Source of the DNA: an uncultured bacterium
Lineage (GTDB): Bacteria; Auribacterota; JACPWU01
Assembly: GCA_964640155.1 (NCBI GenBank)
Contig: CAZXEQ010000003.1
Coordinates: forward strand, 164,189 to 196,188
DNA length: 32,000 nucleotides
Direction of reading: 5' to 3'
Position 1 is the first letter of the stretch, and each line of letters starts with the position of its first letter. Under the pieces are notes generated by a model. It worked only from the letters and a program-made list of their open reading frames with translations. It had not been told where the DNA came from and ran no database searches. A program made the translations under genes and the position numbers. Below are positions 3,001-17,790 of the stretch, one piece after another.

Positions 3001-3271
3001 GCGTGATCAGAAAAAAGAAGTAGAAACCTTTAAACGTGCAAAAACTGATACAGATAATTTACATCAGGTGGGTTCTCCTATGCCTGGGCGAGTGACCAAT
3101 GTATTTGTAAAATCAGGGGATTCTATTCAAAAAGGTGATAAGTTGTTTATGCTTGAAGCTATGAAAATGGAAACATCCATTGCTGCTTCTAGATCGGGAA
3201 TTGTCTCTGCTGTCTATGTTAAATCAGGGGATATCGTTGAAGCAGGTGATTTAGTGATGGTGTATCAATAA
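2..3271 (+). CDS. pyc: Pyruvate carboxylase (single-chain), 5'-truncated by the window edge
   Basis: The reading frame is open from nt 2 (IDKIVELAKEKNVDAIHPGYGFLSENE...) and joins the 68..3271 ORF. It has an ATP-grasp biotin carboxylase region (GGGGRGMR, MEMNTRIQVEH). The carboxyltransferase TIM-barrel motifs are present (FRDAHQSLLATR, VKDMAGLL, HLHTHDTTG). The C-terminal biotinyl domain carries the EAMKME attachment motif. Confidence 0.95.
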   Translation: MDKIVELAKEKNVDAIHPGYGFLSENEGFASACEKAGIIFIGPSSKHIAMMGNKVAARNLAQKMGLPVVPGTETPVSLEDAIPLAQKIGFPVMLKSVFGGGGRGMRIARSVEELKSFYVEAASESKSAFGRPEIFVEKLVEQPKHMEVQILGDQHGQVVHCFERDCSIQRRHQKVIELAPALALLSSQEGRSLREKILSSAVKLAREAGYYSAGTVEFLVQPESGKFYFMEMNTRIQVEHTVTEMITGIDLVKAQIKIAEGYKLSDPEIGITKQEDVQYRGAAIQCRITTEDPSANFVPDYGRLTTYRSPAGHGVRLDAGSAHTGAIITPFYDSLLVKVTTYGRHLREAAERMDRALAEFRIRGVKTNINFLRAVMKENEFLEGDFRTNYLENHPELRIISEDRDRASKLLFYIANIIANGNPAVKNFQRPKQTVFARIPEYDHMAAAPRGAKQILEEKGPEGLVKWILNQKKLLITDTTFRDAHQSLLATRVRTFDMLAVAKGMCRREPNVFSYEMWGGATFDTALRFLKEDPWGRLATIRQAMPNALLQMLLRGSNAVGYTSYSPSVVKSFVQLAAETGVDIFRIFDAFNQLKSIQVAIEAVREVGRIAEPALCYTGNIEDPKRSKYSLNYYVKLAKEFEKAGAHILGVKDMAGLLRPYSARALIKALKQEIGIPIHLHTHDTTGVQAATVLMAAEEGVHIVDAALASMSGIMSQMNLNSLVAALEHHDRGTGLDLPTLNEYSAYWEEVRKNYTPFESYLRSSSAEVYFHEMPGGQYTNLYEQAQAMGLAPRWNEVIKAYAFANKLFGDIIKVTPSSKVVGDMALFIVANNLDETNFFERTQAMSFPASVINMMKGELGFPDGGFPKRIQELVLKDQSKSMLATSSVELPQLKEDFEKKLAVIIKKPVIRISDQDLMSYAMHPQATLDYISHKKMYGDTSILPTSTFFFGMQSGEEIMVDIEEGKTLYIKLIAISDTDAEGMKTVFFELNGDPRDVKVRDQKKEVETFKRAKTDTDNLHQVGSPMPGRVTNVFVKSGDSIQKGDKLFMLEAMKMETSIAASRSGIVSAVYVKSGDIVEAGDLVMVYQ

Positions 3272-3283
3272 TAAATTTTATTT

Positions 3284-4867
3284 CTATTTATTCTTTAAAA
3301 CTTCTAATTCTAATATTCTATCTGCCCTAAAAGTTCTTTTCCCCTGATTTTGAGCATCAAGGGCAATCAGTCCCGTATATTTTTTACCTAAATATTCTAA
3401 TTCTCCGAGGAAAGAAGGCTCTATCACTCTTTTCGATTTTTCGTCATTGGCTTTGAGATACACAATCTGAAGTTTTTGCTTTGTTTTAATTGCTTCTTTG
3501 ATGATGTCCATTTTTTGTTCTAAAGAGATGTTTTTCTCTGAAAGCTTATATTGATATTGAGTCACAAATCGAACCACTTTCCAGTCCATAAAGATATGAT
3601 GCTTTTGAATGGGTTTCTTGAGAACAATACCATTCAAAGTGGTACATCGACTGAGCGCAACATACATTTGTCCGTGACTAAATGTGCCTTTGCCGATATC
3701 AATGATTACATGATCAAATGTTTTTCCCTGACTCTTATGAATGGTGACCGCCCAGGCGAGCATCAGGGGGTACTGTGTAAAGGATCCAATAGTTTCCGAG
3801 ACGAGTTTGTCTGCTTTCGCATCATAGGAGAATCGGGATAATTTCCATGTATGGGGAATAATATTTTCTATTTCTCCATCTGCTAATTTGACTTGGATCA
3901 TGTCCTGACCATCTTCTGTGAAAATCTTAACAATTTCTCCAAGGCTTCCATTGACCCATCGTCCATCGGCGTCATTATTGAGCATCATGATTTGAGCGCG
4001 TTCTTTGAGTGATAAAGCCATGGTAGTAGGGAGATAGTTGCTTTCAAAATCCCCACTTTTTTCTCCTAAATATGAATGAAGCTTTCCTGGAATTTTCCCC
4101 AGTTGAGCATGATTAATTTCTTGAGCTTGCTGATTGGTTGTTGTGAGATAAATAAAAAAATCTTTTTGAGAGGGTTCAAAATCAGGATTAAATCTTTCAT
4201 TAATAGCTTTAAGATCGTTCTCTTTTGCAGAATTATTACGGATGGTATTGAGCAAATGAATAAAGTTTTCATCTGTTTGACGATAAATTTTCTCTAGTTC
4301 TAAAAATTCCATAGAGAAGTTTTCAAAAGCATGAGCGTCAAAAAAATAGGGACTTGGGTAATAAGAACTGAAAATTTCTCTTTCTTTGCTCGTGACTACT
4401 GGTGGAAGCTGATACAAATCTCCAATAAAAATCATTTGTACGCCTCCGAAAGGAAGATCAGCATACTCGCCATTGAGACGCATAAATCTGTCTATACAGT
4501 CAAGAAGGTCAGAGCGCACCATGGATATTTCATCGATTACAATGGTTTTTAGTTTCATAAAAATCTTTTTGGTGTGACTTTGCGCAGATAGTTTCTTGAT
4601 CTTATCAGGTGTGATATCTGTTTTAAATCTGAAGAAGGAGTGAATGGTTTGTCCTTGAACATTTAATGCGGACACTCCCGTAGGAGCAAGGACGACGATT
4701 TTCTTTTTTGTAGTATCACGAAAAAGTTTAAGAAGAGTAGATTTTCCAGTTCCAGCTCGACCGGTGATAAACACATTCTTGCTGGTGTTCTCCATGAACT
4801 CCAGAGCTTTTTTAAACTGATCATTAATTTCGATGTGTTGTAGAGACATTTGATTGCTCGATGCCAC
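3284..4867 (-). CDS. PIF1/RecD-family ATP-dependent DNA helicase with a C-terminal WYL-like domain
   Basis: Walker A is GRAGTGKST and Walker B-like is VIDEISMV. The IGDLYQLPPV and HKSQGKTFD motifs are typical of the PIF1/RecD SF1B family. The C-terminal ~90 aa end in a GKRTFRADRILELE (R.FR.DRI) WYL-type signature. The start is GTG at 4867, and ATG at 4849 is an alternative. Confidence 0.85.
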   Translation of the reverse strand: MASSNQMSLQHIEINDQFKKALEFMENTSKNVFITGRAGTGKSTLLKLFRDTTKKKIVVLAPTGVSALNVQGQTIHSFFRFKTDITPDKIKKLSAQSHTKKIFMKLKTIVIDEISMVRSDLLDCIDRFMRLNGEYADLPFGGVQMIFIGDLYQLPPVVTSKEREIFSSYYPSPYFFDAHAFENFSMEFLELEKIYRQTDENFIHLLNTIRNNSAKENDLKAINERFNPDFEPSQKDFFIYLTTTNQQAQEINHAQLGKIPGKLHSYLGEKSGDFESNYLPTTMALSLKERAQIMMLNNDADGRWVNGSLGEIVKIFTEDGQDMIQVKLADGEIENIIPHTWKLSRFSYDAKADKLVSETIGSFTQYPLMLAWAVTIHKSQGKTFDHVIIDIGKGTFSHGQMYVALSRCTTLNGIVLKKPIQKHHIFMDWKVVRFVTQYQYKLSEKNISLEQKMDIIKEAIKTKQKLQIVYLKANDEKSKRVIEPSFLGELEYLGKKYTGLIALDAQNQGKRTFRADRILELEVLKNK

Positions 4868-4918: not shown

Positions 4919-5554
4919 TTAATCATATTTAAAAAAATAATAGAGAAATTTCATATATTCATTAAATACGGTAATGAGTCCATCCTCGCAAAGCCACCAA
5001 TCATTTGCATCAAAAAATTGATGGGGTGCTTCAATGGCAGAGATATGCACATTCATTCCTTTAAAAACTTTTTTAAAAATCCATTTAGCCCTTTTTGAAT
5101 GAAACCCGGAAGTTACAATAATGATGGATTTAAAAGATTCCTTTTTCTCTATATAACGGCGTAAAGCTTTGGCTTCATCGTAAGTTCCTTCCACAGGTTC
5201 TTCAATAGCAATAATAGCACTGTCAGGAATATGCCTGTATTTAGTTAATACGAGGGCATTGAGTTTTGCGCTTGTAATTCTATAGCCTAAAAGAGGGAAT
5301 AGGTGATTATCGTAGTCACTACCAAATGTCACAATTTTTGGAGCGAATCCTTGCTGGTAAAGGTTAGCTGCTTTTTTGTTGCGCATAGGAATACCCCCTG
5401 AAAGGATTACAATGACATCTGAAGGTTCAGGAGCATCACTAGAAACAAGTACGCGTGCTACTAATGGTAACCATGCCCAGCGAGTGCTAAAAGGGATAGC
5501 AATCATTAAACTTAAAATAATAATAACAATAAAAAATCGATAGGGATGTTTCAT
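4919..5554 (-). CDS. DUF218 (YdcF/SanA/ElyC-family) membrane-anchored protein
   Basis: It has an N-terminal hydrophobic helix (FFIVIIILSLMIAIPF). The core motifs are VILSGG ... IIIVTSGFHSKRA, as in the YdcF/SanA family. Its ATG overlaps the stop of the upstream gene as ATGA (5551-5554). Confidence 0.75.
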   Translation of the reverse strand: MKHPYRFFIVIIILSLMIAIPFSTRWAWLPLVARVLVSSDAPEPSDVIVILSGGIPMRNKKAANLYQQGFAPKIVTFGSDYDNHLFPLLGYRITSAKLNALVLTKYRHIPDSAIIAIEEPVEGTYDEAKALRRYIEKKESFKSIIIVTSGFHSKRAKWIFKKVFKGMNVHISAIEAPHQFFDANDWWLCEDGLITVFNEYMKFLYYFFKYD

Positions 5555-7227
5555 GAGCTCATAGAAGGCGCTTTTTCCGGGACGCGATAGAGGTAAAGGG
5601 TCTTCGTTTTTACAGGCCCTTCTTTAAATATTTTTTTTTGAATAAGAGGTAAATCATTAATGAAAAAAGTACAAGTTACAACCCTTGCTCCAGGGCGAAG
5701 ACGATTTTGAAGAAGGGATTTCAATTTAGGATAAATGGGAGTGGGTAAATACAATGTTACAACAGTGGCTGACCCAACATTTGCTTGTTTAACGTCTTCT
5801 AATAGAAATTGTACACGAGAGCCTACGCCTGCTTGATGAGCATTCTCTTTCGCTTCAGAAATGCGTTGAGGGTCTATATCAATTCCTACACCTCGCGCTC
5901 CATGCATCTTAGCAGCTGCAATGACAATACGCCCATCCCCACAGCCTAAATCATAGACAATATCTTGAGGCCCTACCTCAGCTAATTCAAGCATTTTCTT
6001 AATCACTGCAGGAGATGAGGGTGCGTAAGTCGCCAAATCTGTTTTTGGGAGTCCACGAATCAGTTTGAATATATATTTTGCGATTAATCGAACTGGCCGT
6101 ATGAAATAATAGAGTGCGCAGAGCGATTTAGGCAAAGGTAAAAGAACCCAATCTTGAGGAGTAGGTATCGTACACCTAAGACAAAACTTGATTTTATCAG
6201 TCCATCTCTCAAAAGTTTGAAGATAGAGGAAGTTGTTAGCCAAAAATTTAGATAGACGGTGTTGTTTTTTGAAAAGTCTTTCTTTGACTTTTTTTGTCAA
6301 AACTCCCACTTTTAATAAATCATTTTCAATTTCTTGAATTATATTTTGAGGAAGATTCACTTCAAATAAGTCAGTGGCTAAGCGAAGTCCAAGAAATAGC
6401 ATACGTTGTCCATTTAATTCATAAGCTCTTTTAATTACCCATTTCCAGTTTATATTGTCATAGGTTCGCAGTGTTTCAGCAACCTCACAGATCCAATTCA
6501 ATTTTTTCCATGCATGTTTAGCTCCATGAAAGCAGAGAATTAAAAGTAAATTTTCCGGTGAAAAAGTTTTCACAAATTTATTGGCTAAAGATACAGTTTC
6601 CAGATTTTCCCATAAAGTTTCATCCGTGTCTGGGCGTGAAAAAGAGAAAAAGCTCAGATCTGTTCTCCAATGAAGATCAATATGAATCTTATTTCGGGTA
6701 AAGGTTTGTTTGCGGTCGATTTGAAGTAAGTCTTCTTGTTGTTCTTGAGTTAGTTTAAAGAGGGAGGAATAACCATAATTCTCTAAAATTTTTTTTGCTT
6801 TTAATGCATTTCTTTGATGTATAAAAATGTCTAGATCAACAAATTTATGAAGAGTGAAATCCTTATAGAGAGCTGCTGCTAAAACAGGTCCCTTGTAAAA
6901 AATAGCAGGAATATCTTCCTTTTTGAGTGAATCTAAAATTTTGAATAATTCCAGGGTTATTGAGAGGGAACGTCTTGAATTAATCTGAAAATATTCTTGA
7001 AGTTCTGCAAGAACAAATTGAGGAACAAGATCAGAAAAATGAGACTTTATGTTTTTGTACAAAAGAGACGCCACTTGGTGATGCGCGGCAATTTGAAGGA
7101 AATAATTCCAGTTGATCTTTTGCTGGAGTAAAATTTTAATCTGCTCTATCTTTTTTGAGGGCATTTCTGTTCGTGTACAAGCAATGAGAAGTTTTTCTTC
7201 AGGACGAAAATTACAATGGGTGAGCAT
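5551..7227 (-). CDS. Fusion protein: lasso-cluster-type nucleotidyltransferase (NTP_transf_5/PF14907-like) plus a C-terminal class I SAM-dependent methyltransferase
   Basis: The N-terminal ~390 aa are paralogous to ORF 7343..8446 (YKGPVLAAALY...FVDLDIFI, a pol-beta-type G..DxD; HGAKHAWKKLNWICE). The C-terminal ~165 aa carry SAM motif I, VYDLGCGDGRIVIAAAK, followed by GIDIDP. It is a single uninterrupted ORF. Confidence 0.8.
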   Translation of the reverse strand: MLTHCNFRPEEKLLIACTRTEMPSKKIEQIKILLQQKINWNYFLQIAAHHQVASLLYKNIKSHFSDLVPQFVLAELQEYFQINSRRSLSITLELFKILDSLKKEDIPAIFYKGPVLAAALYKDFTLHKFVDLDIFIHQRNALKAKKILENYGYSSLFKLTQEQQEDLLQIDRKQTFTRNKIHIDLHWRTDLSFFSFSRPDTDETLWENLETVSLANKFVKTFSPENLLLILCFHGAKHAWKKLNWICEVAETLRTYDNINWKWVIKRAYELNGQRMLFLGLRLATDLFEVNLPQNIIQEIENDLLKVGVLTKKVKERLFKKQHRLSKFLANNFLYLQTFERWTDKIKFCLRCTIPTPQDWVLLPLPKSLCALYYFIRPVRLIAKYIFKLIRGLPKTDLATYAPSSPAVIKKMLELAEVGPQDIVYDLGCGDGRIVIAAAKMHGARGVGIDIDPQRISEAKENAHQAGVGSRVQFLLEDVKQANVGSATVVTLYLPTPIYPKLKSLLQNRLRPGARVVTCTFFINDLPLIQKKIFKEGPVKTKTLYLYRVPEKAPSMSS

Positions 7228-7342
7228 AGTTTGTTTATGGTTTTAAATGTTGATAAAGTGATTTGCGTAGTGTTTTGAACACTGTATACGATTTTTATTC
7301 GTTACGAATAGGAATGAGTGTAACTTACGTTTAAATATTAAG

Positions 7343-8446
7343 TCAAGAACTTGAGGTTTTAAAAGGACTTGTCATTTTTTTTAGAATGAAACGAACTGAT
7401 CGTACGATATACTTTGGTGTAATAGACTTTAGGAGCAATCGTATTTTGTCTTTATGTCCCTCCATAGTTGAAAAACGAAAAGTAATATCAAAAATTCTAG
7501 AAAGGGCATGTTTTTTCTTAAAGAGTCGCTCACATGTTTTATAGACTAACTTTTTAACGTTAGGATCTTTTTGTATAAATTTGATTGCTTCGTTTGGGAT
7601 AGGGATTTTGAAGAGGTTTTCTGACAGGCAAAGAGCTAATAAAACCATTCTTTTTTGAGTTTTGTTTTCAGCTCTTTTCAATATCCATGACCAATTCATT
7701 TCAGGGTATTTCTCAATCATTTCTGTAATATCAGATATCCAATTAAGACGGTTCCAAGCATGTTGAGCTCCGTGTGCGCAGAGGACTAAAAATAAATGCT
7801 CTGGAGAAAAGGTGTGTAAAAAATGATTTCCTAAAACTATTGATTGAGCTCTTTCTTCTAAAGGTTCGTTTATTGTATGTGTTTCCCAGTGAAGATCTAT
7901 ATAGACCCCATTTTTTAAAAAAGTTGGATCACAATGATATCGAAAAATATAATCCCATTGGTCGTCTGTGAATCCCATGCTTATGTGGTAGCCTTGAGCC
8001 TGTAAAAGATTTTTAGCTTTAGGGGCATCGTTCTTGTGGATAATAATATCTAAGTCATTAAATTGTCGCAGATGGACCTGTCCATAAAGCATTAGAGCTA
8101 GAATAGGGCCTTTATAAGAAATAACAAAAATATTTTGCTTTGCAAATAAATCCAAAATTTTTATTAATTCCGCGGTCATTTGCAGTGTACGTCGTGAAGA
8201 GTTCTCAAAGTATTCACGAAGTTTGGCCAAAACGAGATCTGGAACATTCTCGCGAAAGAAAGAGTTTAAATGTGTGTAAACAAGGGGTGTGAGTTTATGA
8301 TAAAAGACAATTTTAACAAAGTAGTCCCAATCTATATTTCCCTTTAGTAGATCTTTGATGTGTTCTGTTTTATCGGGACTGAGGGGAGATCGCGCACAGG
8401 CAAACAGAAGTTTTTGTTCAGGACTAAAGAAATTGTGTTGTATCAT
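7343..8446 (-). CDS. Nucleotidyltransferase family protein (NTP_transf_5/PF14907-like), stand-alone paralog
   Basis: It aligns along its whole length with the N-terminal part of 5551..7227 (FSPEQKLLFACAR, YKGPILALMLY...FNDLDIII, HGAQHAWNRLNWISD). The ATG at 8446 (MIQHNFF) matches the paralog N-terminus. The track start at 8458 is a TTG. Confidence 0.8.
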   Translation of the reverse strand: MIQHNFFSPEQKLLFACARSPLSPDKTEHIKDLLKGNIDWDYFVKIVFYHKLTPLVYTHLNSFFRENVPDLVLAKLREYFENSSRRTLQMTAELIKILDLFAKQNIFVISYKGPILALMLYGQVHLRQFNDLDIIIHKNDAPKAKNLLQAQGYHISMGFTDDQWDYIFRYHCDPTFLKNGVYIDLHWETHTINEPLEERAQSIVLGNHFLHTFSPEHLFLVLCAHGAQHAWNRLNWISDITEMIEKYPEMNWSWILKRAENKTQKRMVLLALCLSENLFKIPIPNEAIKFIQKDPNVKKLVYKTCERLFKKKHALSRIFDITFRFSTMEGHKDKIRLLLKSITPKYIVRSVRFILKKMTSPFKTSSS

Positions 8447-8452
8447 AAAAAA

Positions 8453-10363
8453 ATGCAAACACCTTGTATTGAAATAAAAGCCTCTCTATTTGGAGGAATC
8501 ATTTTTCCCTCTGGCTCTTTACATGGTTCAAATGAGACAGTGAAAAAGGCATTACAGTTTGATGACAAGCCTCAACCAGTATTAACTTATGAAAGTGCCA
8601 CATGTCTGGTGTCGCAGTGGATATACACCAATCCAATGTTTCACAATGTAAAAGATTCTTCAACTTTTTTCTTTAAACAAGATCGCTATGTTATTGTGAC
8701 ATGGTCTCGACTAGACAATCGTTTTGAGATTGCATTAAAGCTTCATATTCATCCTCGGGAACTTTCGGATTTAACGGATGGGGATCTTATCCTTAAAACC
8801 TATCTCCGTTTTGGCTCTGAGTGTGCAAAACACTTGGTCGGTGATTTTGCTTTCGTTATCTACGACACAGTAGAGTGTACAACTTATTGTGCGAGAGATC
8901 CTATAGGAATACGTCCATTTTTTTATGCTCAAGCAGGAGATATTTTAATTTTTGCTACACATATGTCGTTCTTTCATAAGATACCATTTTTTAAATCTGA
9001 AATAGATGAACTGTGGCTTTCCAGATTTATCTTAAATACTTATTTTAATTCTAGAGAGACAACGTGCTGTACCAATATTAAGAAATTGTTGCCAGGGCAT
9101 GTTTTAACATATCGTCATCAACAAATTCAAATAACGAGGTATCATGATTTTGATCCCGATAAGACTCTTTCCTTAAAAGATAAGCGCGATTATATAGAAA
9201 TTTACCAAGATACTTTAAAGCAAGCAGTGAGTTGCCGGCTTTCTCAAAATAAAATAATAGGGGCAGAACTTAGTGGAGGATTAGACTCTACATCTGTTAT
9301 TGGCGTTGCTTTAGAATGTGATCCTGATCTGTATCAGACATTGCATACCTTTGGCCACGATAAACTGGATTTCGATGGTATTTATATGGATGAAGCACTT
9401 TCTTATTGGAAGCTTCAAGGCCCCCATCACCGTTTTCAGAATGACGAAATGATGGAACATTATCGTAATATTCCTGAAACCATTGCGTTACTTGGACAGC
9501 CAGAGCAAGGAGGTATGGCCTCTTATCATATTCCATTTTATAGATTGGCTGAGAAAAAAGGCATTCAGGTATTGCTTTCGGGTTTTGGAGGAGATGAGGT
9601 CGTAACTCATCAGACAGGATTTGTAATTTTAGAGTTATTATCCAAAGGCCAATTCAAGAAAGCTTGGCAGGCTTTACCGGGACCATTTATAGAAAAAATA
9701 CTTAGATTTTTTAAATATTGCGCTAGTTTAAGTTGTTATGAATTCATCCATCAACGCTATTATCAGTCTTTATTAAAAGAGGTTAAAGATAGGCTTGCTT
9801 ATATGCCTTTGGCAACACCGTGGAAAGAAAAATTCCTTTTAATAAAACCGCACTTTAATGAGGCCAAAATAAGAAGCGGCATATGTGTAAATCAAGAATG
9901 CTTACAAAAACTCTTTCAGCCTGCATTGACAGCTCGGTTAGAAGCTTCTTCGGTTTTAGCTGCAGCTTACAAAATAGAATATGTCTGGCCTCTTCTAGAT
10001 GTGAGACTCATTGAATTATTTTTATCGATTCCTTCAGAGTACAAGTGGTTTCAAGGAATAGCGCGTTATTTGCACCGAGAAGCTATGATAGGTAAAATTC
10101 CTGAAAGAATTCGACAGTCCCTGACAAAGTATATGGGGAAAATGAAATATTCGTCTTCTATATACTCTATAGCCGAGGTCAATGATTTTTTTTGCAGAAC
10201 GTTTCCCCCTTCTTTTAATAAAATGATAGATGTTAAACGACTGAATAAATTAGATTGTCTTAATCGGACTCAGATTAAAACTAAAGAGAGTAAACCTTTT
10301 GTATATGAGAGCATTCTTCATCGTTGTATGCAATTAGATCAGTGGTTGAATGATTGCGTTTAG
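8453..10363 (+). CDS. Lasso peptide cyclase C1 (asparagine synthetase B-like isopeptide-bond-forming enzyme)
   Basis: It has an Asn-synthase-type adenylation signature, GAELSGGLDSTSV (SGGLDS PP-loop), and LLSGFGGDEV. An N-terminal GATase-like domain lacks Cys2, as in McjC-type enzymes. It is a close paralog of 17939..19846. The first ATG in the ORF is at 8453. The track start at 8360 is a GTG inside the divergent neighbour. Confidence 0.85.
   Translation: MQTPCIEIKASLFGGIIFPSGSLHGSNETVKKALQFDDKPQPVLTYESATCLVSQWIYTNPMFHNVKDSSTFFFKQDRYVIVTWSRLDNRFEIALKLHIHPRELSDLTDGDLILKTYLRFGSECAKHLVGDFAFVIYDTVECTTYCARDPIGIRPFFYAQAGDILIFATHMSFFHKIPFFKSEIDELWLSRFILNTYFNSRETTCCTNIKKLLPGHVLTYRHQQIQITRYHDFDPDKTLSLKDKRDYIEIYQDTLKQAVSCRLSQNKIIGAELSGGLDSTSVIGVALECDPDLYQTLHTFGHDKLDFDGIYMDEALSYWKLQGPHHRFQNDEMMEHYRNIPETIALLGQPEQGGMASYHIPFYRLAEKKGIQVLLSGFGGDEVVTHQTGFVILELLSKGQFKKAWQALPGPFIEKILRFFKYCASLSCYEFIHQRYYQSLLKEVKDRLAYMPLATPWKEKFLLIKPHFNEAKIRSGICVNQECLQKLFQPALTARLEASSVLAAAYKIEYVWPLLDVRLIELFLSIPSEYKWFQGIARYLHREAMIGKIPERIRQSLTKYMGKMKYSSSIYSIAEVNDFFCRTFPPSFNKMIDVKRLNKLDCLNRTQIKTKESKPFVYESILHRCMQLDQWLNDCV
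8810..8869. repeat. 60-nt perfect inverted repeat, copy 1 (inside cyclase C1)
   Basis: tttggctctgagtgtgcaaaacacttggtcggtgattttgctttcgttatctacgacaca is the exact reverse complement of 19454..19513. It encodes FGSECAKHLVGDFAFVIYDT in both paralogs. Confidence 0.9.
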
Positions 10364-10378
10364 ATTTGGTGTAAATAA

Positions 10379-11008
10379 TCAATTGCTAAAAGTATAATGA
10401 AAGAGCGATATGTCTTTTTGATATAGATCTGCAATTCTGTTTCGTAGCTCATCGTCATAATAATTGAAATAGGGGAGGTGTTCTGACTTGTTGATAATAT
10501 TGAGTGTTTCGGTAGGGATGCCTATTTTTTTACAGGCAAGGTCGTAAGATTCTTGGAGATTTTCCTGGCGACAAATATAATCAATCATAAGTGCATCCGA
10601 AGTATCAGTGATAAATTGGTATTGTGGAGCAAATAAGATTCTCTTTTGATGGACTGAATCTTTTGCAATTTTTTTTAGAGTGAGTAAAGTATTCTTTTTT
10701 AAAATGTCGGTGTTTCTATACATAAAAAAGACATAAGAGATGAATCTGTCCCATGGATTACGTACACAAGCAAATTTAAAGTAAGAATTCCAAATATTTT
10801 CTCCCACGGCTTTTTTTATTTCATTTGCTGAAATATGACCATGGTTAATGCTGGCAATTTCTTTATAAGGTGCTTTTTTTTTAACGAAGAGTCCTACCTG
10901 TTCTATATCATCTTTTGCTAGGTGCTTTCTTAAAGCAAAACGAATGGCATGAGTACCTGTTTTAGGAATAGCAATAAAAATAAATTTGTACTTGTGTGAG
11001 ATGATCAT
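10379..11008 (-). CDS. Sulfotransferase (Sulfotransfer_2/carbohydrate-sulfotransferase-like family)
   Basis: It has a 5'-PSB-type loop, IPKTGTHAIRF, and a VRNPWDRFISY motif, both characteristic of PAPS-dependent sulfotransferases of the PF03567 type. Its start has an ATGA overlap with the upstream hydroxylase gene. Confidence 0.7.
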   Translation of the reverse strand: MIISHKYKFIFIAIPKTGTHAIRFALRKHLAKDDIEQVGLFVKKKAPYKEIASINHGHISANEIKKAVGENIWNSYFKFACVRNPWDRFISYVFFMYRNTDILKKNTLLTLKKIAKDSVHQKRILFAPQYQFITDTSDALMIDYICRQENLQESYDLACKKIGIPTETLNIINKSEHLPYFNYYDDELRNRIADLYQKDISLFHYTFSN

Positions 11009-11583
11009 TGATTGGAAGGTATCTCTAAATATTCAAAGATAAGATGGATTCTGTCACAATTTCCATCATTCTTCACAGCATGCAGTGTTGCGTTATTAAC
11101 TTCATAGGCATATCCCTCTTTTAGATTATATTTTTTAGAGGATTGAAAGAACCAGGCATCAGGGTTAGTTTGAATAGGGATATGTATTTTATGAGGCCTG
11201 TTCTGTAAAATATTTCCATCAATATGTGGTGGGATTTTTGCGCCGGGAGGTAATTTCGCGAGCATAACCCTAGGATAAAAACCATTTGTATAACCATAAT
11301 GTTGAGTCACCTCATTCATTACGGGTAATAGTTTGTCTTTCCATTTATCCCATACAGGTAGATCAAAATAGGTGATAGGCACCTGTTTTTTATTAGAAAA
11401 TTTAAAAATGATATGCTGAGTTTGTTTTAAAACCCCATCTTTATTGTAATTCGCTTTTTCTGAATCCGTGTCGTTCCAATCGTTTTTCGGGATGGTTAGG
11501 ATATGATCTTTAATAGAGGAAATATTGATTTTACAGATTTCGAGTATTTCTTTTGTTTTTTTTGTGTTTATTTCTAGTTTCAT
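11005..11583 (-). CDS. Aspartyl/asparaginyl beta-hydroxylase-like Fe(II)/2-oxoglutarate oxygenase
   Basis: It has the pattern IPPHIDGN...RPHKIHIPIQT...NNATLHAVKNDGNCDRIHLIFEY, which is typical of the Asp_Arg_Hydrox cupin family (HxD...H facial triad). Confidence 0.7.
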   Translation of the reverse strand: MKLEINTKKTKEILEICKINISSIKDHILTIPKNDWNDTDSEKANYNKDGVLKQTQHIIFKFSNKKQVPITYFDLPVWDKWKDKLLPVMNEVTQHYGYTNGFYPRVMLAKLPPGAKIPPHIDGNILQNRPHKIHIPIQTNPDAWFFQSSKKYNLKEGYAYEVNNATLHAVKNDGNCDRIHLIFEYLEIPSNQ

Positions 11584-11680
11584 AAAGTTTATTGATTTTT
11601 TTATTGTATTTAAATAAAGTATGATAATATTATATGAAATATGGTATTGTTTATTTTTAATTTAAGAAAGGCCTAAAATA

Positions 11681-11836
11681 ATGAGCTTAAATGAATCTCA
11701 TAAAAATGATCCCGGGCTTATAGTAAAGAAAGAACTTTGGCAATCTCCAAAGCTTCTTTATCTTAATTTGGATGGAACTGAGTCAGGTCCTACTTATCAC
11801 ATGGGCTACGAAGATGCAATGTATGTCTCTCACTAA
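11681..11836 (+). CDS. Candidate lasso peptide precursor A1 (51 aa, not in the ORF track): MSLNESHKNDPGLIVKKELWQSPKLLYLNLDGTESGPTYHMGYEDAMYVSH
   Basis: This is a hand translation. The ATG at 11681 is the first ATG after an in-frame TAA (11663), with GAAAGG 9 nt upstream. The leader carries an aromatic-xx-P-x-L motif (WQSPKL) and a Thr near the cleavage site, as in lasso leaders. The proposed core is GPTYHMGYEDAMYVSH (Gly1, Glu9 ring acceptor). The leader block is homologous to the second small ORF at 17635..17790. Confidence 0.75.
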   Translation: MSLNESHKNDPGLIVKKELWQSPKLLYLNLDGTESGPTYHMGYEDAMYVSH

Positions 11837-11993
11837 TCATGTTTTTTAAAATGATATTTAATTTTTTTGAAGCACGGCCATCCTGTTTTTTTTCTATTGT
11901 GTACTCACAAAAATAATTCTTTTTCTTCTTCTTTTATAAAGCAGCGAATCTCATTTTAAGATTAGATTAAATTACAAGAAAAACTGAAATTTC

Positions 11994-12974
11994 TTAGATA
12001 AATTCAATTTCCTTTAGCAAGGTGGCAAGATGTTCTTGCGAGAAGTGTTGAATGCCTCTAGGAATATTTGCTTCATAGATAGGGACTCGTTTTACGATGG
12101 ATATAATCATTTTAAGCTGATGCCTTACAAGCTCTCTGGCTTGCCAGGGAATTCTGGGATAATGGTTAAGATGAATAACAGCCTCACTGGCTTTTAGCCG
12201 TCTTACAGTCAAATTTTTAAATTTGATAGATAACCGAGGAATGACAATAGTTTTGAGAGTAGGGTATTCGTTTAAACTGCTAGAAACACGTACGATAAAT
12301 CGTTTATCTGCAGATATTCCGATGAGAGTTTCCGGAAAAAGTTTTGCAACGTTTTCAGCATTGGGGCGTAATCGAATTTCTGATGTTCCTGGAAAGCAAC
12401 TTACCGTGTTTTTGTAAAATTTAAGACGAAGTGTATCATCCGTAATTAGCCTAGCTCCATTTGAACATAGAAGGGCGGCTAAAGTAGATTTTCCCATTCC
12501 TGAATTTCCTACAAAAGCAAGAGCTGTATTTTTAATTTCTACTGCACTTGCATGCAATACAGTATGTCCTTGTAGGGTAAGAATGAAAGTAATAACATTT
12601 CCTGAGATGAGCAGGGGAATAATGTCAGGGTCCGCATGGGGGGTAAGGTGAACGTGTATATGCCGACATTCGAAATCCATTCTGAATTCACAAAAATCAT
12701 GATAACGCAAAATATAACCCGTAGCGGTTTGTGTATATATATAACCTTTTCCATTTTTATAAGAAAATTTTGCAAGAATCTGGCCTTCCTGTAGTGTGCT
12801 TGAAAAGTTACAGTTCTCACCCCAATAGATATTTAGATCTTCAAGCGAATTATCATTATAAATAGGTGTTCCAAGAGGAATTTCAGATCGAATGGATAAA
12901 CCATAGAGCTTATAGGTGGGATAAGATTTTAGTTTTTTATTGGCTTTTAAAGGATCTGCTTGGATTTGAGGCAT
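11994..12974 (-). CDS. HPr kinase/phosphorylase C-terminal-domain-like kinase K1 (lasso precursor kinase family)
   Basis: It has the P-loop FVGNSGMGKSTLAALL followed by LITDDT, as in HPrK/P and paeninodin-type lasso kinases. The ATG at 12974 is preceded by GAGAGGAAA. From there the N-terminus (...YKLYGLSIRSEIPL) aligns with paralogs K2 and K3. The longer ORF extending to 13037 is possible. Confidence 0.8.
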   Translation of the reverse strand: MPQIQADPLKANKKLKSYPTYKLYGLSIRSEIPLGTPIYNDNSLEDLNIYWGENCNFSSTLQEGQILAKFSYKNGKGYIYTQTATGYILRYHDFCEFRMDFECRHIHVHLTPHADPDIIPLLISGNVITFILTLQGHTVLHASAVEIKNTALAFVGNSGMGKSTLAALLCSNGARLITDDTLRLKFYKNTVSCFPGTSEIRLRPNAENVAKLFPETLIGISADKRFIVRVSSSLNEYPTLKTIVIPRLSIKFKNLTVRRLKASEAVIHLNHYPRIPWQARELVRHQLKMIISIVKRVPIYEANIPRGIQHFSQEHLATLLKEIEFI

Positions 12975-13229
12975 TAATTTCCTCTCTTGAAGATTAAGTG
13001 GTGTGTAGAATTTATCTGTCTTTTTTAAAGAAGTCAATACACAATGGGTTTGTCAAATAAGATTAAAGTTATTATACAAAAGAACGCTTAAGATGAAGCG
13101 AGGCGGCATTTAGTTTATGCTTCTTACCGAGAGATTGCATATATACAGAAAACTTATTTCTTGTTGAATACAAGTAGATTCATATTTAAAATTGTGGCTT
13201 AGTAAAATAGGGGGTTGTGGGTGAAATAC

Positions 13230-14150
13230 ATGAACTATAAAGCTTTTGGATTAATCCTATCGTCTTCTTTGTCTTTACCTTTTATTGAAGTATCTTCAGA
13301 AACTGTACCCGACTGTCTTATTTCAATAGGGGAAGTTCCTTCTCCTATTGACATCCCGTCATTAAAGTCTCTCGGTTTGTGTGTATATGTCAATTCAGAA
13401 AATGTAGTTGTTGATGTAGAAGGTGTTGCTCGTTTTCATTGCCAATTGAATAAGATTATTGTACAGACTTTGGGTGCGTGTGAGGCAGGCGTGATTGCTT
13501 TTCTAGTATATTCAGCCTTACCCTATTGGCTATTGTTGAGAGGACAGATGGTGCTTAGAGGTTGTGCGATTACTTGGGACGGAGTTCACAGCCAATTATG
13601 GTTATCTCATTCAGGGGTAGGGAGCTCGACTTTTGCAGCTTATGCGGTACAACGAGGAGCAAAACTTTTAAGTGATCATCTTTGTGTGATAGGTTTTAAC
13701 GAGAAAAAAATTAGTACAGTACAAAGTGGGATTTCCCAAATAAAATTATGGCAAGATGCCTTAAATCAGTTGCAGATTAAGAGTGCATCTTTAGCTCCTA
13801 TTCGGTCTGGACTGATGCAGTTTTTATGGGATGTAACAGAAAATTTTTATCATCAATCCTTGCCCATTTCTCAAGTTATAAGCTTGAGTGTTTCCAATGA
13901 TGTGAAGGATAATGGATTGAAAAAGTTTTTAGGTTTAGAGAAAATAAAATATTTGAGCGCTTACAATTATTGTCATACATTTGGAGATGTTTTGTTGAAG
14001 AAGACTTTTCAGGCCCCTCTCTTGGTAGCCTTAGCTAATCAAGTAGCAGTTTATTCGTTTACTCGCTTGAGTGGACAGAAAATAGGTGATGGAGTGAATA
14101 ACACGATGGATGAGATTTTTCCTTTCTTTAAGGAGTCTGTCCTTGCTTAA
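13230..14150 (+). CDS. HPr-kinase-like paralog K2 with a degenerate P-loop (putative pseudokinase)
   Basis: The N-terminus MNYKAFGLILSS aligns with K3 (MNAYRAFGLNILS). The P-loop position reads LSHSGVGSSTF (GKS changed to GSS). The following ADD/TDD position reads SDH. Alternative starts are GTG 13221 (GGGGG 6 nt upstream) and TTG 13215. Confidence 0.7.
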   Translation: MNYKAFGLILSSSLSLPFIEVSSETVPDCLISIGEVPSPIDIPSLKSLGLCVYVNSENVVVDVEGVARFHCQLNKIIVQTLGACEAGVIAFLVYSALPYWLLLRGQMVLRGCAITWDGVHSQLWLSHSGVGSSTFAAYAVQRGAKLLSDHLCVIGFNEKKISTVQSGISQIKLWQDALNQLQIKSASLAPIRSGLMQFLWDVTENFYHQSLPISQVISLSVSNDVKDNGLKKFLGLEKIKYLSAYNYCHTFGDVLLKKTFQAPLLVALANQVAVYSFTRLSGQKIGDGVNNTMDEIFPFFKESVLA

Positions 14151-15924
14151 AGAACACCCTTTTGTTCTATACCTTCAATCACTGATTCGTTTTTCTCCTG
14201 CACGGTTTATTCTTGGATGTCTGTTGAATATTACCAATACTTTTTTATCAGGGTTAGGCATGCTGATGCTTATTCCTCTATTACATTATTCAGGATGGCT
14301 ATCTCAGACAACTTTTCATGAAAATCAGTTTATGCAGGTCTTGACTTGGTTGCCGCATTTTCAGGGACAATGGCCTCTTTTTATAACTTTATTGTTGTTT
14401 GTGGTCTTAATGGGAATAACTGCTTTGGTGCAATATAATACGAGTTTTATGCAGAATAGATTGATGCAAGAATATTTATTTGTTCTACGTGAGAAATTTA
14501 ATAGAAGCATTGCACATAGTCGATGGGATTTTTTGTTAAAGCAGAAACTTAAGCATGTCGAACATATGCTAACGGTGGGGTTACAACAAGTTAGTACATT
14601 GACTTATTTCTCCTTAAATTTAATCAGTGATGCCATTGTTGTATCCATCTATTTTTTATTTTCATGGTGGGTTGACTTTCGATTGACTCTTGTTGCAACG
14701 GGATGTGCTTTCAGTCTATTGTTTCTTCTTAGGAAGCACAAAGCGATATTAACAGGACAACAAACTTTTTTTCTGAATCGTAAAATGCAAGAATCTTTCG
14801 GTCTTTTTTTAGATGGGGTAAAACTAGCCAAAAGTTATAATCAGGTTTCAAATTATCTTAAAAATTATACAGTGTCGGACTTGGAGTTTAAGCAGTCTCA
14901 ATTAGATTTTTTCCGTAATCAACAGACGATTCAGCTGCTCTTTAAGTTAATCAGTGCAGGACTTTTTGCTTTTATTTTTTATGTTGCAGTTCAGGTTTTT
15001 CATATCTCAATGATTTCTATGCTTGCCTTGCTAATGATTTACGCTAGATTGTTGCCTCGTATTTCGGGTCTACAGCAGAATTATCTTCGTACTATGAATG
15101 TGGCCCCAGTTTTTCATGAATTATCTTCAATGAAAAGGGGATTTGATGAAGCGCAGGAGAAACAAGAGTCTATAGACCAGCTTTTGACATTTGAACAATC
15201 AATCACTTTTAATCATATCAGTTTTTATTATGATGATTTTGCTGCTTTAAAATCGGTGAATTGTCAGTTTTTTAAAAATACAACGACAGCCATTGTAGGC
15301 AGATCAGGTGCAGGTAAATCAACTTTAGCAGATTTGCTGTTGGGTTTATTGATTCCTAGCAATGGAGTTATTATGTTGGATGGGAAGACTCTTGCAGAGT
15401 CTCAATTAAAAGAATGGCGTAAATACATTAGTTACGTTCCTCAAGAAACCTATTTTTTTAATGATACTTTGCGGGCAAATTTGCTTTGGGCTGTTCCGGA
15501 TGCCAGTAATCAAGAGTTATGGAAGTCCTTAGAGCAGGCTGCTGCGGCTGAGTTTGTAGCGAAATTACCTCAGGGTTTGGATACTTTTATTGGAGATCGA
15601 GGCATTCATTTGTCGGGTGGAGAAAGGCAGCGTATTGCTATTGCTCGGGCGTTACTGAGAGAGCCTAAAGTTTTGCTGCTAGACGAAGCAACCAGTTCTC
15701 TGGATACTTATAATGAAGAATTGATTTTTAAAACTTTACAATCTTTGAAGGGGACGATGACAATAATTATTATTGCTCATCGTTTAAGTACGATTCGAAT
15801 TGCGGATCATGTTTTAGTTTTAGATCAAGGGCATCTAATTGAACATGGGACTTCGAGTAAACTTTTTGAAAATCAACAATCATATTTTAATCTTTTATTT
15901 GCAAGTCAGATTATTAATTCTTAA
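14110..15924 (+). CDS. ABC transporter, fused permease/ATP-binding protein (McjD-like lasso peptide exporter)
   Basis: The N-terminal half has about 6 hydrophobic segments. Walker A is GRSGAGKST, the signature is LSGGERQR, Walker B is LLLDEATS and the H-loop is IIAHRLST. An alternative TTG start at 14143 lies behind AAGGAG. Confidence 0.9.
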   Translation: MRFFLSLRSLSLLKEHPFVLYLQSLIRFSPARFILGCLLNITNTFLSGLGMLMLIPLLHYSGWLSQTTFHENQFMQVLTWLPHFQGQWPLFITLLLFVVLMGITALVQYNTSFMQNRLMQEYLFVLREKFNRSIAHSRWDFLLKQKLKHVEHMLTVGLQQVSTLTYFSLNLISDAIVVSIYFLFSWWVDFRLTLVATGCAFSLLFLLRKHKAILTGQQTFFLNRKMQESFGLFLDGVKLAKSYNQVSNYLKNYTVSDLEFKQSQLDFFRNQQTIQLLFKLISAGLFAFIFYVAVQVFHISMISMLALLMIYARLLPRISGLQQNYLRTMNVAPVFHELSSMKRGFDEAQEKQESIDQLLTFEQSITFNHISFYYDDFAALKSVNCQFFKNTTTAIVGRSGAGKSTLADLLLGLLIPSNGVIMLDGKTLAESQLKEWRKYISYVPQETYFFNDTLRANLLWAVPDASNQELWKSLEQAAAAEFVAKLPQGLDTFIGDRGIHLSGGERQRIAIARALLREPKVLLLDEATSSLDTYNEELIFKTLQSLKGTMTIIIIAHRLSTIRIADHVLVLDQGHLIEHGTSSKLFENQQSYFNLLFASQIINS

Positions 15925-15936
15925 TAAGGATCGATC

Positions 15937-16821
15937 ATGAAACAAGATCTTCCTCTTATTTGGTTGGCCTCCTATCCTAAGTCTGGGAATACATGGTTTC
16001 GCGTTTTTTTAGCTAATTTGCTTCAAGAGGAAAAAGATAAAGTAATACCTGTTTCTATTAATCAATTAATGGTGGGGCAGATTGCAAGCAGTCGAGCGGC
16101 TTTTGATCAAGTTTATGGAATTGATTCAAGCCTTTTAACCTTAGAAGAAATTGATGCGAAACGTCCAAAGCTGTATAAAAAATGGGTAAATTTAGATAAT
16201 GATAAAACTCGCTTTCATAAAGTTCATGATGCGTATACTTTCTTGCCAAATGGCGACCCCCTCTTAGGAAATCCAAGTCAACAAAAAGCTTTGTATTTTA
16301 TTCGCAATCCTTTAGATGTAGCAGTATCATTTGCTTATCATAGTGGTTATACGGATATGAATAAAATGATTGAGAAGATGAATGAGGTCTCCTATGCTTT
16401 TTGTCACCGTAAAATCTGTTTTTATTCTCAACTACGTCAACAATTATTAAGTTGGCATGAGCATGTTTTGAGTTGGATTGATCAGTGTAAAATGCCTGTT
16501 CATGTGATGAGATATGAAGATATGGTGAATGATCCTATCTCAATTTTTTATAAAGCTATACAATTTATAGGTTTATCTCAGAGTGTTTTGGATGTCGAAA
16601 AAGCATTAGAATTAAGCTCTTTTTCTAATTTACAGAGTCAAGAAGCTCAAGAAGGTTTTAAGGAAAAGTCTCCGAAAACAAAAGCATTTTTTCGTAAAGG
16701 TAAGATTGGTTCATACCGTGAGTCATTAACACAAGAGCAGATTGAATCTTTAATTCAGGCTCATGCCAAGGTTATGCACCGTTTTGGCTATCTTGACAAC
16801 ACTGGAGCACCTGTGTTTTAA
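15937..16821 (+). CDS. Sulfotransferase (Sulfotransfer_1, cytosolic PAPS-dependent type)
   Basis: It has the 5'-PSB motif SYPKSGNTWFRVFL and the 3'-PB motif FFRKGKIGSYRE. AAGGA lies 8 nt upstream of the ATG. Confidence 0.85.
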   Translation: MKQDLPLIWLASYPKSGNTWFRVFLANLLQEEKDKVIPVSINQLMVGQIASSRAAFDQVYGIDSSLLTLEEIDAKRPKLYKKWVNLDNDKTRFHKVHDAYTFLPNGDPLLGNPSQQKALYFIRNPLDVAVSFAYHSGYTDMNKMIEKMNEVSYAFCHRKICFYSQLRQQLLSWHEHVLSWIDQCKMPVHVMRYEDMVNDPISIFYKAIQFIGLSQSVLDVEKALELSSFSNLQSQEAQEGFKEKSPKTKAFFRKGKIGSYRESLTQEQIESLIQAHAKVMHRFGYLDNTGAPVF

Positions 16822-16849: not shown

Positions 16850-17152
16850 ATGTCTGATTATTTATTTCAGTCCGATGACATTCTGGTTAGAGAAAAAAAT
16901 TTGTTTTCTGCAAATATAGATGATGATGTTGTAATGCTCGACGAATCTTCTGGGAATTATTTTGGTCTAAATCCTGTTGCTGGTAAAATTTGGCAGCTTC
17001 TAGAAAAGCCAATTCGTTTAAGAGATCTTATTAATAGCTTAACCACCCACTATGAAGTTGACAGGCTGCAATGCGAACAAGAAACGGCCAGTTTTCTAAA
17101 TTCATTGAATGAACGTAAACTATTACACATCACTCATGCTGAAAAAGCTTAA
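16850..17152 (+). CDS. Lasso peptide biosynthesis B1 protein (PqqD-family RiPP recognition element)
   Basis: It is a ~100 aa PqqD-like protein (VVMLDESSGNYFGLNPVAGKIWQLLEKPIRLRDLINSL). It sits directly upstream of, and overlaps, the B2 protease gene. Confidence 0.85.
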   Translation: MSDYLFQSDDILVREKNLFSANIDDDVVMLDESSGNYFGLNPVAGKIWQLLEKPIRLRDLINSLTTHYEVDRLQCEQETASFLNSLNERKLLHITHAEKA

Positions 17153-17585
17153 GAGTTATTGGCGTTTACCTTTGGAATTACGCAGGGCATCCAGAGAAGC
17201 TTTCTTATATTTAACTTTCTCAAAAATTTTAATCAAGAGTATTCCCATCCGTTTTTCTTTGAAGTATTTGGGTGTTAAGAATATAGATCTTTCCAGAAGT
17301 GATGTGAGCTGCGATCCGAGTGTTCTTTTCCTGATCAGACAGAGCATTTATTTGGTGAGTAAAAATTTACCTTGGAGGAGTAAATGCTTAGATCAGGCTA
17401 TGACTGCACAATGGATGCTTTCCAGAAGAAATTTACCTACGACACTATACTTGGGAATGAGAAAATCCGATAACGCTAAAAAATCTTATGATGCGCATGC
17501 TTGGGTATGTTGCGGTAATATGCCTGTTATAGGAGTGCAGCCTCAGGTGGGATATGTTGTAGTAGGGAGATATTCTTTCCTGTAA
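17136..17585 (+). CDS. Lasso peptide biosynthesis B2 protein (transglutaminase-like Cys leader peptidase)
   Basis: It has the pattern WRSKCLDQAMTAQWML...YDAHAWVCCG (catalytic Cys and His of the Transglut_core3/McjB family). The probable start is MLKKLKSYW at 17136, which overlaps B1 by 17 nt. The track start is 17109. Confidence 0.85.
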   Translation: MLKKLKSYWRLPLELRRASREAFLYLTFSKILIKSIPIRFSLKYLGVKNIDLSRSDVSCDPSVLFLIRQSIYLVSKNLPWRSKCLDQAMTAQWMLSRRNLPTTLYLGMRKSDNAKKSYDAHAWVCCGNMPVIGVQPQVGYVVVGRYSFL

Positions 17586-17634: not shown

Positions 17635-17790
17635 TCATGAAAAAACACCGCAAGCAGCTTCAGGGACTACCGCGCATCCTCCTTCAGTTTGAACAGATAA
17701 ATCAATTTGAATAAGAGTTGGTGTTTGCCAGAGTTCTTTTTTTTGTTTAGTTTTGGAAACGGTTTTATGAGTGGATTGTTGAGTTCGCAT
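17635..17790 (-). CDS. Candidate lasso peptide precursor A2 (51 aa, not in the ORF track): MRTQQSTHKTVSKTKQKKELWQTPTLIQIDLSVQTEGGCAVVPEAACGVFS
   Basis: This is a hand translation of the minus strand. GAGGAA lies 6 nt upstream of the ATG at 17790, and the TGA stop is at 17637-17635. The leader motif is KKELWQTPTL with Thr at -2. The core is GGCAVVPEAACGVFS (Gly1, Glu8, two Cys, C-terminal Ser). It lies immediately downstream of cyclase C2 on the same strand. Confidence 0.8.
   Translation of the reverse strand: MRTQQSTHKTVSKTKQKKELWQTPTLIQIDLSVQTEGGCAVVPEAACGVFS

Follow-up and report, generated by a model that had tools for sequence, protein, structure and literature searches.

What might a coupled hydroxylase and sulfotransferase be doing in the middle of a gene cluster for lasso peptides, a class in which we found no characterized sulfated member in the literature searched? 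The question is raised by a 32,000-nucleotide stretch of DNA from an uncultured bacterium of the Auribacterota (contig CAZXEQ010000003.1, positions 164,189 to 196,188; hereafter the window), in which the genes for an Asp/Asn beta-hydroxylase-like oxygenase (HYD) and a Sulfotransfer_2-type sulfotransferase (ST2) lie together beside the gene for a predicted lasso precursor, A1. An earlier note on this DNA had proposed that the two enzymes possibly give a hydroxylated and sulfated lasso peptide, and its author, too, knew of no characterized sulfated one. Judged by its genes, the locus is a lasso cluster whose tailoring pair is without precedent, rather than a new kind of system, and its product is a prediction. 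On balance we favor the view that the HYD-ST2 pair acts on the lasso peptide; which residue is modified, in what order, and before or after folding, we infer from the comparisons given below.

The HYD-ST2 pair within the lasso cluster

HYD (11005 to 11583, minus strand; 192 amino acids [aa] on translation) is a soluble Fe(II)/2-oxoglutarate oxygenase of the Asp_Arg_Hydrox family (PF05118, E 3.1e-10; 40.6 bits against a cut-off of 22.6), and ST2 (10379 to 11008, minus strand; 209 aa) is a minimal sulfotransferase with the motifs that bind 3'-phosphoadenosine 5'-phosphosulfate (PAPS; PF03567, E 1.7e-14; 55 bits against a cut-off of 22). The end of HYD and the beginning of ST2 overlap by 4 nucleotides (nt) at 11005 to 11008, where tcat on the plus strand reads ATGA on the minus strand and holds both the HYD stop and the ST2 start. 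HYD starts at 11583 and the A1 gene (11681 to 11836, plus strand) at 11681, and the two are read divergently from an AT-rich intergenic region of 97 nt (11584 to 11680). A scan of 10200 to 12100 found no promoter or terminator above chance in this region, the sole weak promoter-like site being at 11653 to 11624 on the minus strand.

The residues on which catalysis would depend are retained in both proteins. Across 26 HYD homologues the iron triad (H120-x-D122 and H168) does not vary, and nor does R178, the basic residue for 2-oxoglutarate binding; in ST2 the PAPS motifs PKTGTH (the 5'-phosphosulfate loop) and RNPxDRxxS (for the 3'-phosphate; RNPWDRFIS in the window) are conserved with G57-H58 in 21 homologues, the Gly-His dipeptide being invariant. 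The AlphaFold model of HYD (pLDDT, the predicted local distance difference test, 92.8) has a double-stranded beta-helix fold, and a fold search with it returned 2-oxoglutarate oxygenases, including AspH, at a probability of 1.0. The ST2 model (pLDDT 93.5) has a sulfotransferase fold whose matches are generic only (template modeling score [TM] <=0.53). Sequence searches of the PDB returned nothing significant for HYD or for ST2. The modeled folds agree with the family assignment of both enzymes, and the fold matches do not indicate a substrate for either.

The pair is flanked by lasso genes on both sides, with the cyclase gene C1 (8453 to 10363, plus strand) on one and A1 on the other, and it lies in the middle of a cluster that extends over about 5.5 to 20.7 kb of the window. 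The gene order is NTP_transf_5-methyltransferase fusion, NTP_transf_5, C1, ST2, HYD, A1, K1, K2, ABC exporter, ST1, B1, B2, A2, C2, K3, so that the pair is accompanied by two precursors (A1 and A2), two cyclases, B1 and B2, three HPr-kinase-like genes, two NTP_transf_5 genes, an ABC exporter and a second sulfotransferase, ST1. Among the components by which a lasso cluster is recognized, it has an Asn-synthetase-like cyclase (PF00733, in two copies), B1 (PF05402) and B2 (PF13471), together with the HPr-kinase-like K, NTP_transf_5 and ABC exporter genes. A WxxP leader motif is found in A1 and A2 (as W-x-x-P-x-L in both) and in the precursors of related clusters, and the A1 leader fits the [Y/W]xxPx[L/V/I] motif described as the site to which the recognition element of peptides that are made on ribosomes and modified after translation (RiPPs), the RRE, binds (PMC13381572). 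On gene content, then, this is a genuine paeninodin-type lasso cluster. The identical gene order occurs on three independent metagenome contigs (L001-L003; L numbers denote loci compared with the window), and the arrangement is therefore not an assembly accident.

A1 is 51 aa long, with the leader motif W-Q-S-P-K-L and the core ...(S)GPTYHMGYEDAMYVSH; it ends ...DGTESGPTYHMGYEDAMYVSH and contains one Asp, in Y-E-D-A, and three Tyr. A2 (17635 to 17790, minus strand; 51 aa; core GGCAVVPEAACGVFS, ending ...QTEGGCAVVPEAACGVFS) has no Asp, Asn or Tyr in its core. In these residues our reading coincides with that of the earlier note, as it does in the two enzyme families, their translational coupling, the 97-nt divergence from A1 and the presence of a second, Sulfotransfer_1-type enzyme between the exporter and B1 (ST1, 15937 to 16821, plus strand; PF00685).

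Recurrence in related clusters and the candidate target residue

The loci compared here come from the best 80 matches of each search, and many of the contigs are short. Two of them carry the pair inside other lasso clusters. In L027, from a Cryomorphaceae metagenome-assembled genome (MAG), the HYD homologue (9378 to 10001; 52% identical to the window HYD) and the ST2 homologue (10001 to 10627; 51%) overlap by one base and are placed, with a second HYD paralogue alongside, between a Sulfotransfer_4-B2 fusion and a K-ST1-B1-C-A operon. The fusion (8228 to 9379, minus strand) joins a Sulfotransfer_4 domain to a B2 leader peptidase (PF17784 + PF13471), and by its domain composition it is a physical tie between sulfotransferases and lasso maturation. 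In total the L027 locus encodes three sulfotransferases, each from a different family, and a pair of HYD paralogues.

In L180 the homologues of HYD (10001 to 10609; 52%) and ST2 (10587 to 11285; 42%) are followed by an overlapping K gene (11266 to 12174) and then, after gaps of 4-10 nt, by ST1 and B1; C, B2 and the precursor lie about 3 kb upstream of this operon, and a second ST2, a Sulfotransfer_4 gene, an exporter and an NTP_transf_5 gene lie downstream of it. An operon composed of HYD, ST2, K, ST1 and B1 would be hard to explain without a shared pathway. Insertion by chance into three lasso clusters (those of the window, L027 and L180), with identities of 42-52%, is likewise unlikely. The places that HYD alone has in lasso-type loci, between precursor and K in L131 and beside PAPS-synthesis genes in the partial locus L182, also speak for a lasso substrate. 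L180 also encodes a Trp halogenase (7131 to 8932) divergent from its precursor (...NGEDSWYYS), which has the sole Trp-bearing core among those read; this suggests that the L180 product is a halogenated lasso peptide, and tailoring genes thus match core residues elsewhere in these clusters.

Precursors were readable in about 20 loci. In all four of those linked to HYD, the ring-closing Glu is followed by Asp or Asn, the C-terminal segment of the core being GYEDAMYVSH in A1, NGEDGFYQS in L131, NGEDSWYYS in L180 and PVENQFYNS in L027; all four also have Y-x-S at or near the C-terminus. Among non-HYD precursors, E-[D/N] is absent from all nine whose contigs are of sufficient length to decide (Fisher p = 0.0014) and present in two of the full set of 15 (L100 and L101; p = 0.004), values to be read with the fact that the motif was picked post hoc and that the HYD-linked precursors number only four, which counts against the proposed target. 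The L100 contig stops exactly at the expected HYD site, and the L101 contig stops before the remaining cluster. We also tried Asp or Asn anywhere in the core as a marker of HYD, which failed to separate the HYD-linked clusters; only the E-[D/N] dipeptide does so. The correlation favors the Asp of Y-E-D-A as the hydroxylation site, and A1 over A2 (E-A) as the substrate.

The ring to which this Glu would belong is read with differing ease in the two precursors. The A2 register (QTE|GG...E8) is a clean fit to a Thr near the cleavage site and an acidic residue at core position 7-9. The A1 register is ambiguous: Thr at -2 (GTE|S) puts the first acidic residue at E10, and a 9-residue ring needs a cut after TES, with Thr at -3. 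The same register problem is seen in L103 and L105 (KTE|GG...E10) and in L131. This subfamily may have Thr at -3 or may form larger rings; we know of no precedent for the 10-residue lasso ring that A1 would give with Thr at -2.

The pair beyond lasso clusters and its possible substrates

Most relatives of the pair are found outside lasso clusters. More than 2,000 relatives of ST2 at 40-69% identity are present in the database, and when one genome per species was scanned, at least 563 species proved to have an ST2 homologue. Of the 80 best loci, 67 have HYD and ST2 homologues within 400 bp of each other, in the order ST2 then HYD in 62 of the 67, and the taxa concerned are Lysobacterales, Sphingomonadales, Caulobacterales, Hyphomonadaceae and Bacteroidota. 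The commonest third gene (about 43 of 89 loci) encodes a tetratricopeptide repeat (TPR)-sulfotransferase of about 600 aa; in loci of the Bacteroidota type an alkaline-phosphatase-TPR-sulfotransferase fusion is followed by HYD and then ST2. Neither form of this partner is encoded in the window.

Some of these loci have further recurrent neighbors. In many alphaproteobacterial loci (L053-L087) a distant second PF05118 paralogue follows the TPR-sulfotransferase about 3 kb downstream of ST2, giving a four-gene module of ST2, HYD, TPR-sulfotransferase and second HYD paralogue. A hemolysin-III-like gene that adjoins ST2 was considered as a functional partner and rejected, being confined to 23 Lysobacteraceae-type loci and hence a matter of synteny. 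A conserved open reading frame (ORF) of 61-66 aa (...GSLGLLALGAVGLKAWRQKR...) with one hydrophobic helix occurs in L004 (4477 to 4662), L175 (2465 to 2665) and L177 (3252 to 3437), divergent from HYD and upstream of the alkaline-phosphatase-TPR-sulfotransferase gene; it was rejected as a RiPP precursor comparable to A1, since it has a transmembrane-like helix and a conserved C-terminus but lacks a leader motif, and nothing homologous to it is encoded in the window.

The explanation that we favor is that HYD-ST2 is a 'hydroxylate, then O-sulfate' cassette, belonging to this widespread module and recruited into a paeninodin-type cluster, where it would tailor the A1-derived peptide. HYD, with Fe(II), 2-oxoglutarate and O2, would hydroxylate a side-chain carbon, most plausibly that at the beta position of the Asp next after the ring-closing Glu (Y-E-D-A). 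ST2, with PAPS, would then transfer sulfate to a hydroxyl of that peptide, most economically the one made by HYD, because HYD and ST2 stay adjacent across phyla and in hundreds of genomes; the hydroxyl of a Tyr, Ser or Thr, or of a sugar, would be an alternative acceptor. C1, B1 and B2 would cut and cyclize the peptide, K1 would phosphorylate its Ser near the C-terminus, and ST1 and the NTP_transf_5 enzymes would attach further groups. If HYD and ST2 worked in tandem on the Asp or Asn after the ring Glu, the result would be a beta-sulfooxy-aspartyl residue, in what would be the first sulfated lasso peptide, one also phosphorylated and otherwise decorated. We put this specific product forward tentatively, as a possibility rather than an expectation; no RiPP known to us carries the modification.

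Several observations weigh against a lasso peptide as the substrate. The pair is, on its distribution, a widespread module that is not lasso-specific: only one of the 80 best ST2 genome loci is a lasso locus, and the closest relatives of the window pair (L004, L175 and L177; 64-69% identity) adjoin alkaline-phosphatase-TPR-sulfotransferase genes and not lasso genes. Neighbor-joining trees showed no exclusive lasso clade for HYD or for ST2, although these are plain trees without support values and do not fix the number of recruitments. HYD also occurs without ST2, in L131, where it stands between the precursor and K (order A-HYD-K-ST1-B1-C), and in L182, a partial lasso-type locus (B1, B2, NTP_transf_5 and ABC transporter) in which neither cyclase nor precursor was identified and in which HYD adjoins the PAPS-synthesis genes cysN/cysD/cysC. 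The window itself has no PAPS-synthesis gene among its annotated ORFs of at least 90 aa. Neither HYD nor ST2 has a recognizable leader-binding domain, both being single-domain proteins. Finally, the fold does not establish Asp/Asn specificity for HYD: the solved structures that come closest are those of proline hydroxylases, of a nucleoside-antibiotic hydroxylase, of a viral collagen prolyl hydroxylase and of AspH, none of them above TM 0.62, and with proline hydroxylases nearest at that level the residue specificity of the modeled enzyme is unreadable from its fold.

The distribution is what would be expected if the pair were a passenger, modifying some non-lasso substrate (a protein or envelope component usually handled with the TPR-sulfotransferase) after landing in the cluster by chance. 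Nearly all of the loci in which HYD adjoins ST2 are non-lasso, about half of the loci have the TPR-sulfotransferase nearby, the nearest relatives of the pair are non-lasso and no clade is specific to lasso clusters; in addition, PF05118 includes lipid hydroxylases, and HYD has a weak match to LpxO (E 0.009), albeit far under the cut-off. A passenger would, however, have had to land by chance three times, in the window, in L027 and in L180, and in L180 to have joined the kinase, ST1 and B1 in a single operon, with an overlap into the kinase gene. The window lacks the TPR-sulfotransferase with which such a substrate would usually be handled, and E-[D/N] in the precursors tracks HYD. We therefore regard a passenger as unlikely, while noting that of the alternatives it survives best.

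The earlier note's reading of a tailored lasso peptide thus gains from the recurrence of the pair in the L027 and L180 clusters and loses from its wide occurrence elsewhere; its choice of the Asp of Y-E-D-A gains from the Asp or Asn that follows the ring Glu in every HYD-linked precursor, and the fold leaves Asp specificity unshown. The note had also named, among what would tell against the proposal, sulfotransferases that are not co-conserved with the precursors. Co-conservation holds in a small minority of the loci with the pair, and the family as a whole lacks it.

The sulfotransferase that is co-conserved with lasso genes is, from the loci compared, ST1 and not ST2. In the ST1 scan of metagenomes an HPr-kinase-like gene lies directly upstream in 36 of 80 loci and lasso genes are present in 44 of 80, rising to 27 of 31 at an ST1 identity of at least 40%. 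ST2 was found in none of the 80 ST1-centered loci, 44 of them with lasso genes, which is a further point against ST2 as a lasso enzyme. The nearest solved sequences to ST1 are Teg12, Teg14 and StaL (E 3e-12 to 8e-7), along with the SULT1 family and cytosolic aryl sulfotransferases. The idea that ST1 corresponds to the sulfotransferase domain of the TPR proteins, in free-standing form, was rejected, there being no BLAST similarity between the two.

These relationships bear on the form in which the earlier note had cast its proposal, with HYD beta-hydroxylating the Asp and ST2 independently O-sulfating a Tyr of A1. The model was RaxX of Xanthomonas, a ribosomal peptide whose sulfated Tyr is made by a dedicated PAPS enzyme, RaxST. 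A1 does have three Tyr where A2 has none, and Y-x-S stands near the C-terminus of all HYD-linked precursors; yet Y-x-S or another aromatic-x-S is common in related clusters without ST2 (L126, L128 and L155), and the motif is therefore uninformative on ST2. Neither TPST (a tyrosylprotein sulfotransferase) nor RaxST is among the top 50 PDB fold matches of the ST2 model, so that the RaxST-like part of the proposal found no support in a model that matches only the generic sulfotransferase fold, and it is ST1, not ST2, whose nearest solved relatives are Teg12, Teg14, StaL and SULT1. RaxX, moreover, is not a lasso peptide, nor is a hydroxylase partner known for it, and we found no sequence or fold link between RaxST and ST2. 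The tight, ancient linkage of HYD and ST2 points to a shared site rather than to two independent ones, and we consider Tyr sulfation by ST2 improbable, somewhat more so than a passenger. Least probable is that sulfate serves as a leaving group, the beta-carbon being activated and the sulfate then lost to give a dehydro residue or a second cross-link in a mature peptide with neither +16 nor +80: the strict pairing of hydroxylase and sulfotransferase is all in the locus that suggests it, sulfation-assisted elimination or cyclization is known from other pathways (curacin, for example, and sorghum LGS1, a structure title among the ST2 fold matches), and no candidate nucleophile or lyase was identified.

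Other cluster genes, known systems and implications

The remaining genes fill out the paeninodin-type architecture in duplicate. The cyclases C1 and C2 (17939 to 19846, minus strand) each combine PF00733 with GATase_7 and are 56% identical; the C1 ORF opens with a GTG at 8360, its ATG at 8453 lines up with the C2 start, and against the NF033535 lasso cyclase model C1 scores 275 bits, under the family cut-off. B1 (16850 to 17152, plus strand) is a PqqD-like RRE (PF05402, E 3.9e-17) and B2 (17109 to 17585, plus strand) a transglutaminase-like leader peptidase (PF13471, E 9e-18). The ABC exporter D occupies 14110 to 15924 on the plus strand (ABC_tran, E 5e-33), and ST1, which follows it, matches Sulfotransfer_1 at E 1.2e-30.

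The three HPr-kinase-like genes differ in their Walker A motifs. K1 (11994 to 13037, minus strand) has an intact GMGKST, with HprK-related NCBIfam matches and a match to Hpr_kinase_C (E 3e-7) that is under the Pfam cut-off, and K3 (19887 to 20744, minus strand), homologues of which lie upstream of ST1 in related loci, has GSGKST. K2 (13215 to 14150, plus strand) is a paralogue, 28% identical to K3 (E 1e-31), with a degenerate GVGSST; the Walker Lys present in K1 and K3 is absent from it, and K2 is probably catalytically dead. Of the two NTP_transf_5 genes, one (7343 to 8458, minus strand; PF14907, E 3e-59) encodes a nucleotidyltransferase of the paeninodin/pseudomycoidin 'N' type, and the other (5551 to 7227, minus strand) fuses NTP_transf_5 (PF14907, E 9e-58) to a class I methyltransferase (Methyltransf_31/25) whose best NCBIfam match is a protein-lysine N-methyltransferase, under the cut-off. 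The fusion suggests a further tailoring step.

Beyond the cluster, its downstream side is a sugar-nucleotide/polysaccharide locus with a NusG-like first gene, a neighborhood that resembles the published occurrence of paeninodin-like clusters inside capsule loci. A PIF1-like helicase with a C-terminal WYL domain (3284 to 4867, minus strand) lies just outside the cluster, and a pyruvate carboxylase (68 to 3271, plus strand) has as its best named relative a protein that is 79% identical, from a 'Chlamydiae bacterium' MAG. Read from this one marker, apart from the lineage listed for the assembly, the host would probably be an environmental member of the Chlamydiota, a phylum in which we know of no described lasso cluster, although no search aimed at one was made. 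Nine window proteins were looked up, and each is the sole member of its 90%-identity cluster.

Compared with the paeninodin and pseudomycoidin clusters, the window shares the core architecture (K, the NTP_transf_5 gene N, the ABC exporter D and split B1/B2), the WxxP leader motif and a near-C-terminal Ser of the kind that K phosphorylates; it differs in its two precursors and two cyclases, in its three copies of K, of which one is degenerate, and in the presence of a PF05118 oxygenase and of a further sulfotransferase, of the Sulfotransfer_2 type. For hydroxylation the nearest parallel is CanE, the Fe/2-oxoglutarate hydroxylase that makes beta-OH-Asp on the lasso precursor of canucin A (PMC8498205). 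The likeness is that of an oxygenase of this kind acting on a lasso precursor Asp; CanE, however, modifies the Asp at the C-terminus of a class II peptide from an actinobacterium, whereas the candidate Asp in the window follows the ring Glu and the candidate enzyme is coupled to a sulfotransferase. For sulfation, Teg12, Teg14 and StaL use PAPS to place sulfate on hydroxyls of a constrained peptide scaffold, but they resemble ST1 rather than ST2 and their substrates are non-ribosomal peptides.

The combination of the two activities was anticipated by Iyer, Abhiman, de Souza & Aravind (2010), who described operons of beta-hydroxylases and sulfotransferases and predicted hydroxylation, then sulfation, of co-encoded proteins (PMC2938197). 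As we propose for the window, a 2-oxoglutarate oxygenase would make a hydroxyl, and a linked sulfotransferase would sulfate the peptide or protein; their predicted substrates are, however, collagen-like or tail-collar proteins and not lasso peptides. Collar proteins flank several related lasso loci: tandem Collar-domain genes (PF07484, about 175 aa) stand beside kinase-ST1 lasso clusters and HYD homologues in L106, L113, L126, L128, L180, L182, L178 and L119. As alternative substrates for the window pair they were set aside, since the window encodes no such protein; a look through the 80 ST2 genome loci found no Collar-domain gene either.

Sulfotransferase genes have been noted in paeninodin-type lasso clusters for a decade (as 'putative sulfotransferase', since 2014-2016), with no function assigned and no demonstrated product. 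If the interpretation favored here is true, a sulfated lasso peptide, possibly one hydroxylated first and sulfated afterwards, would bring a new modification chemistry to a scaffold in wide use for peptide engineering. HYD-ST2 is a compact cassette present in hundreds of Proteobacteria and Bacteroidota, and lasso clusters offer it a small, genetically defined candidate substrate, so that the chemistry, once solved here, could explain the whole family.

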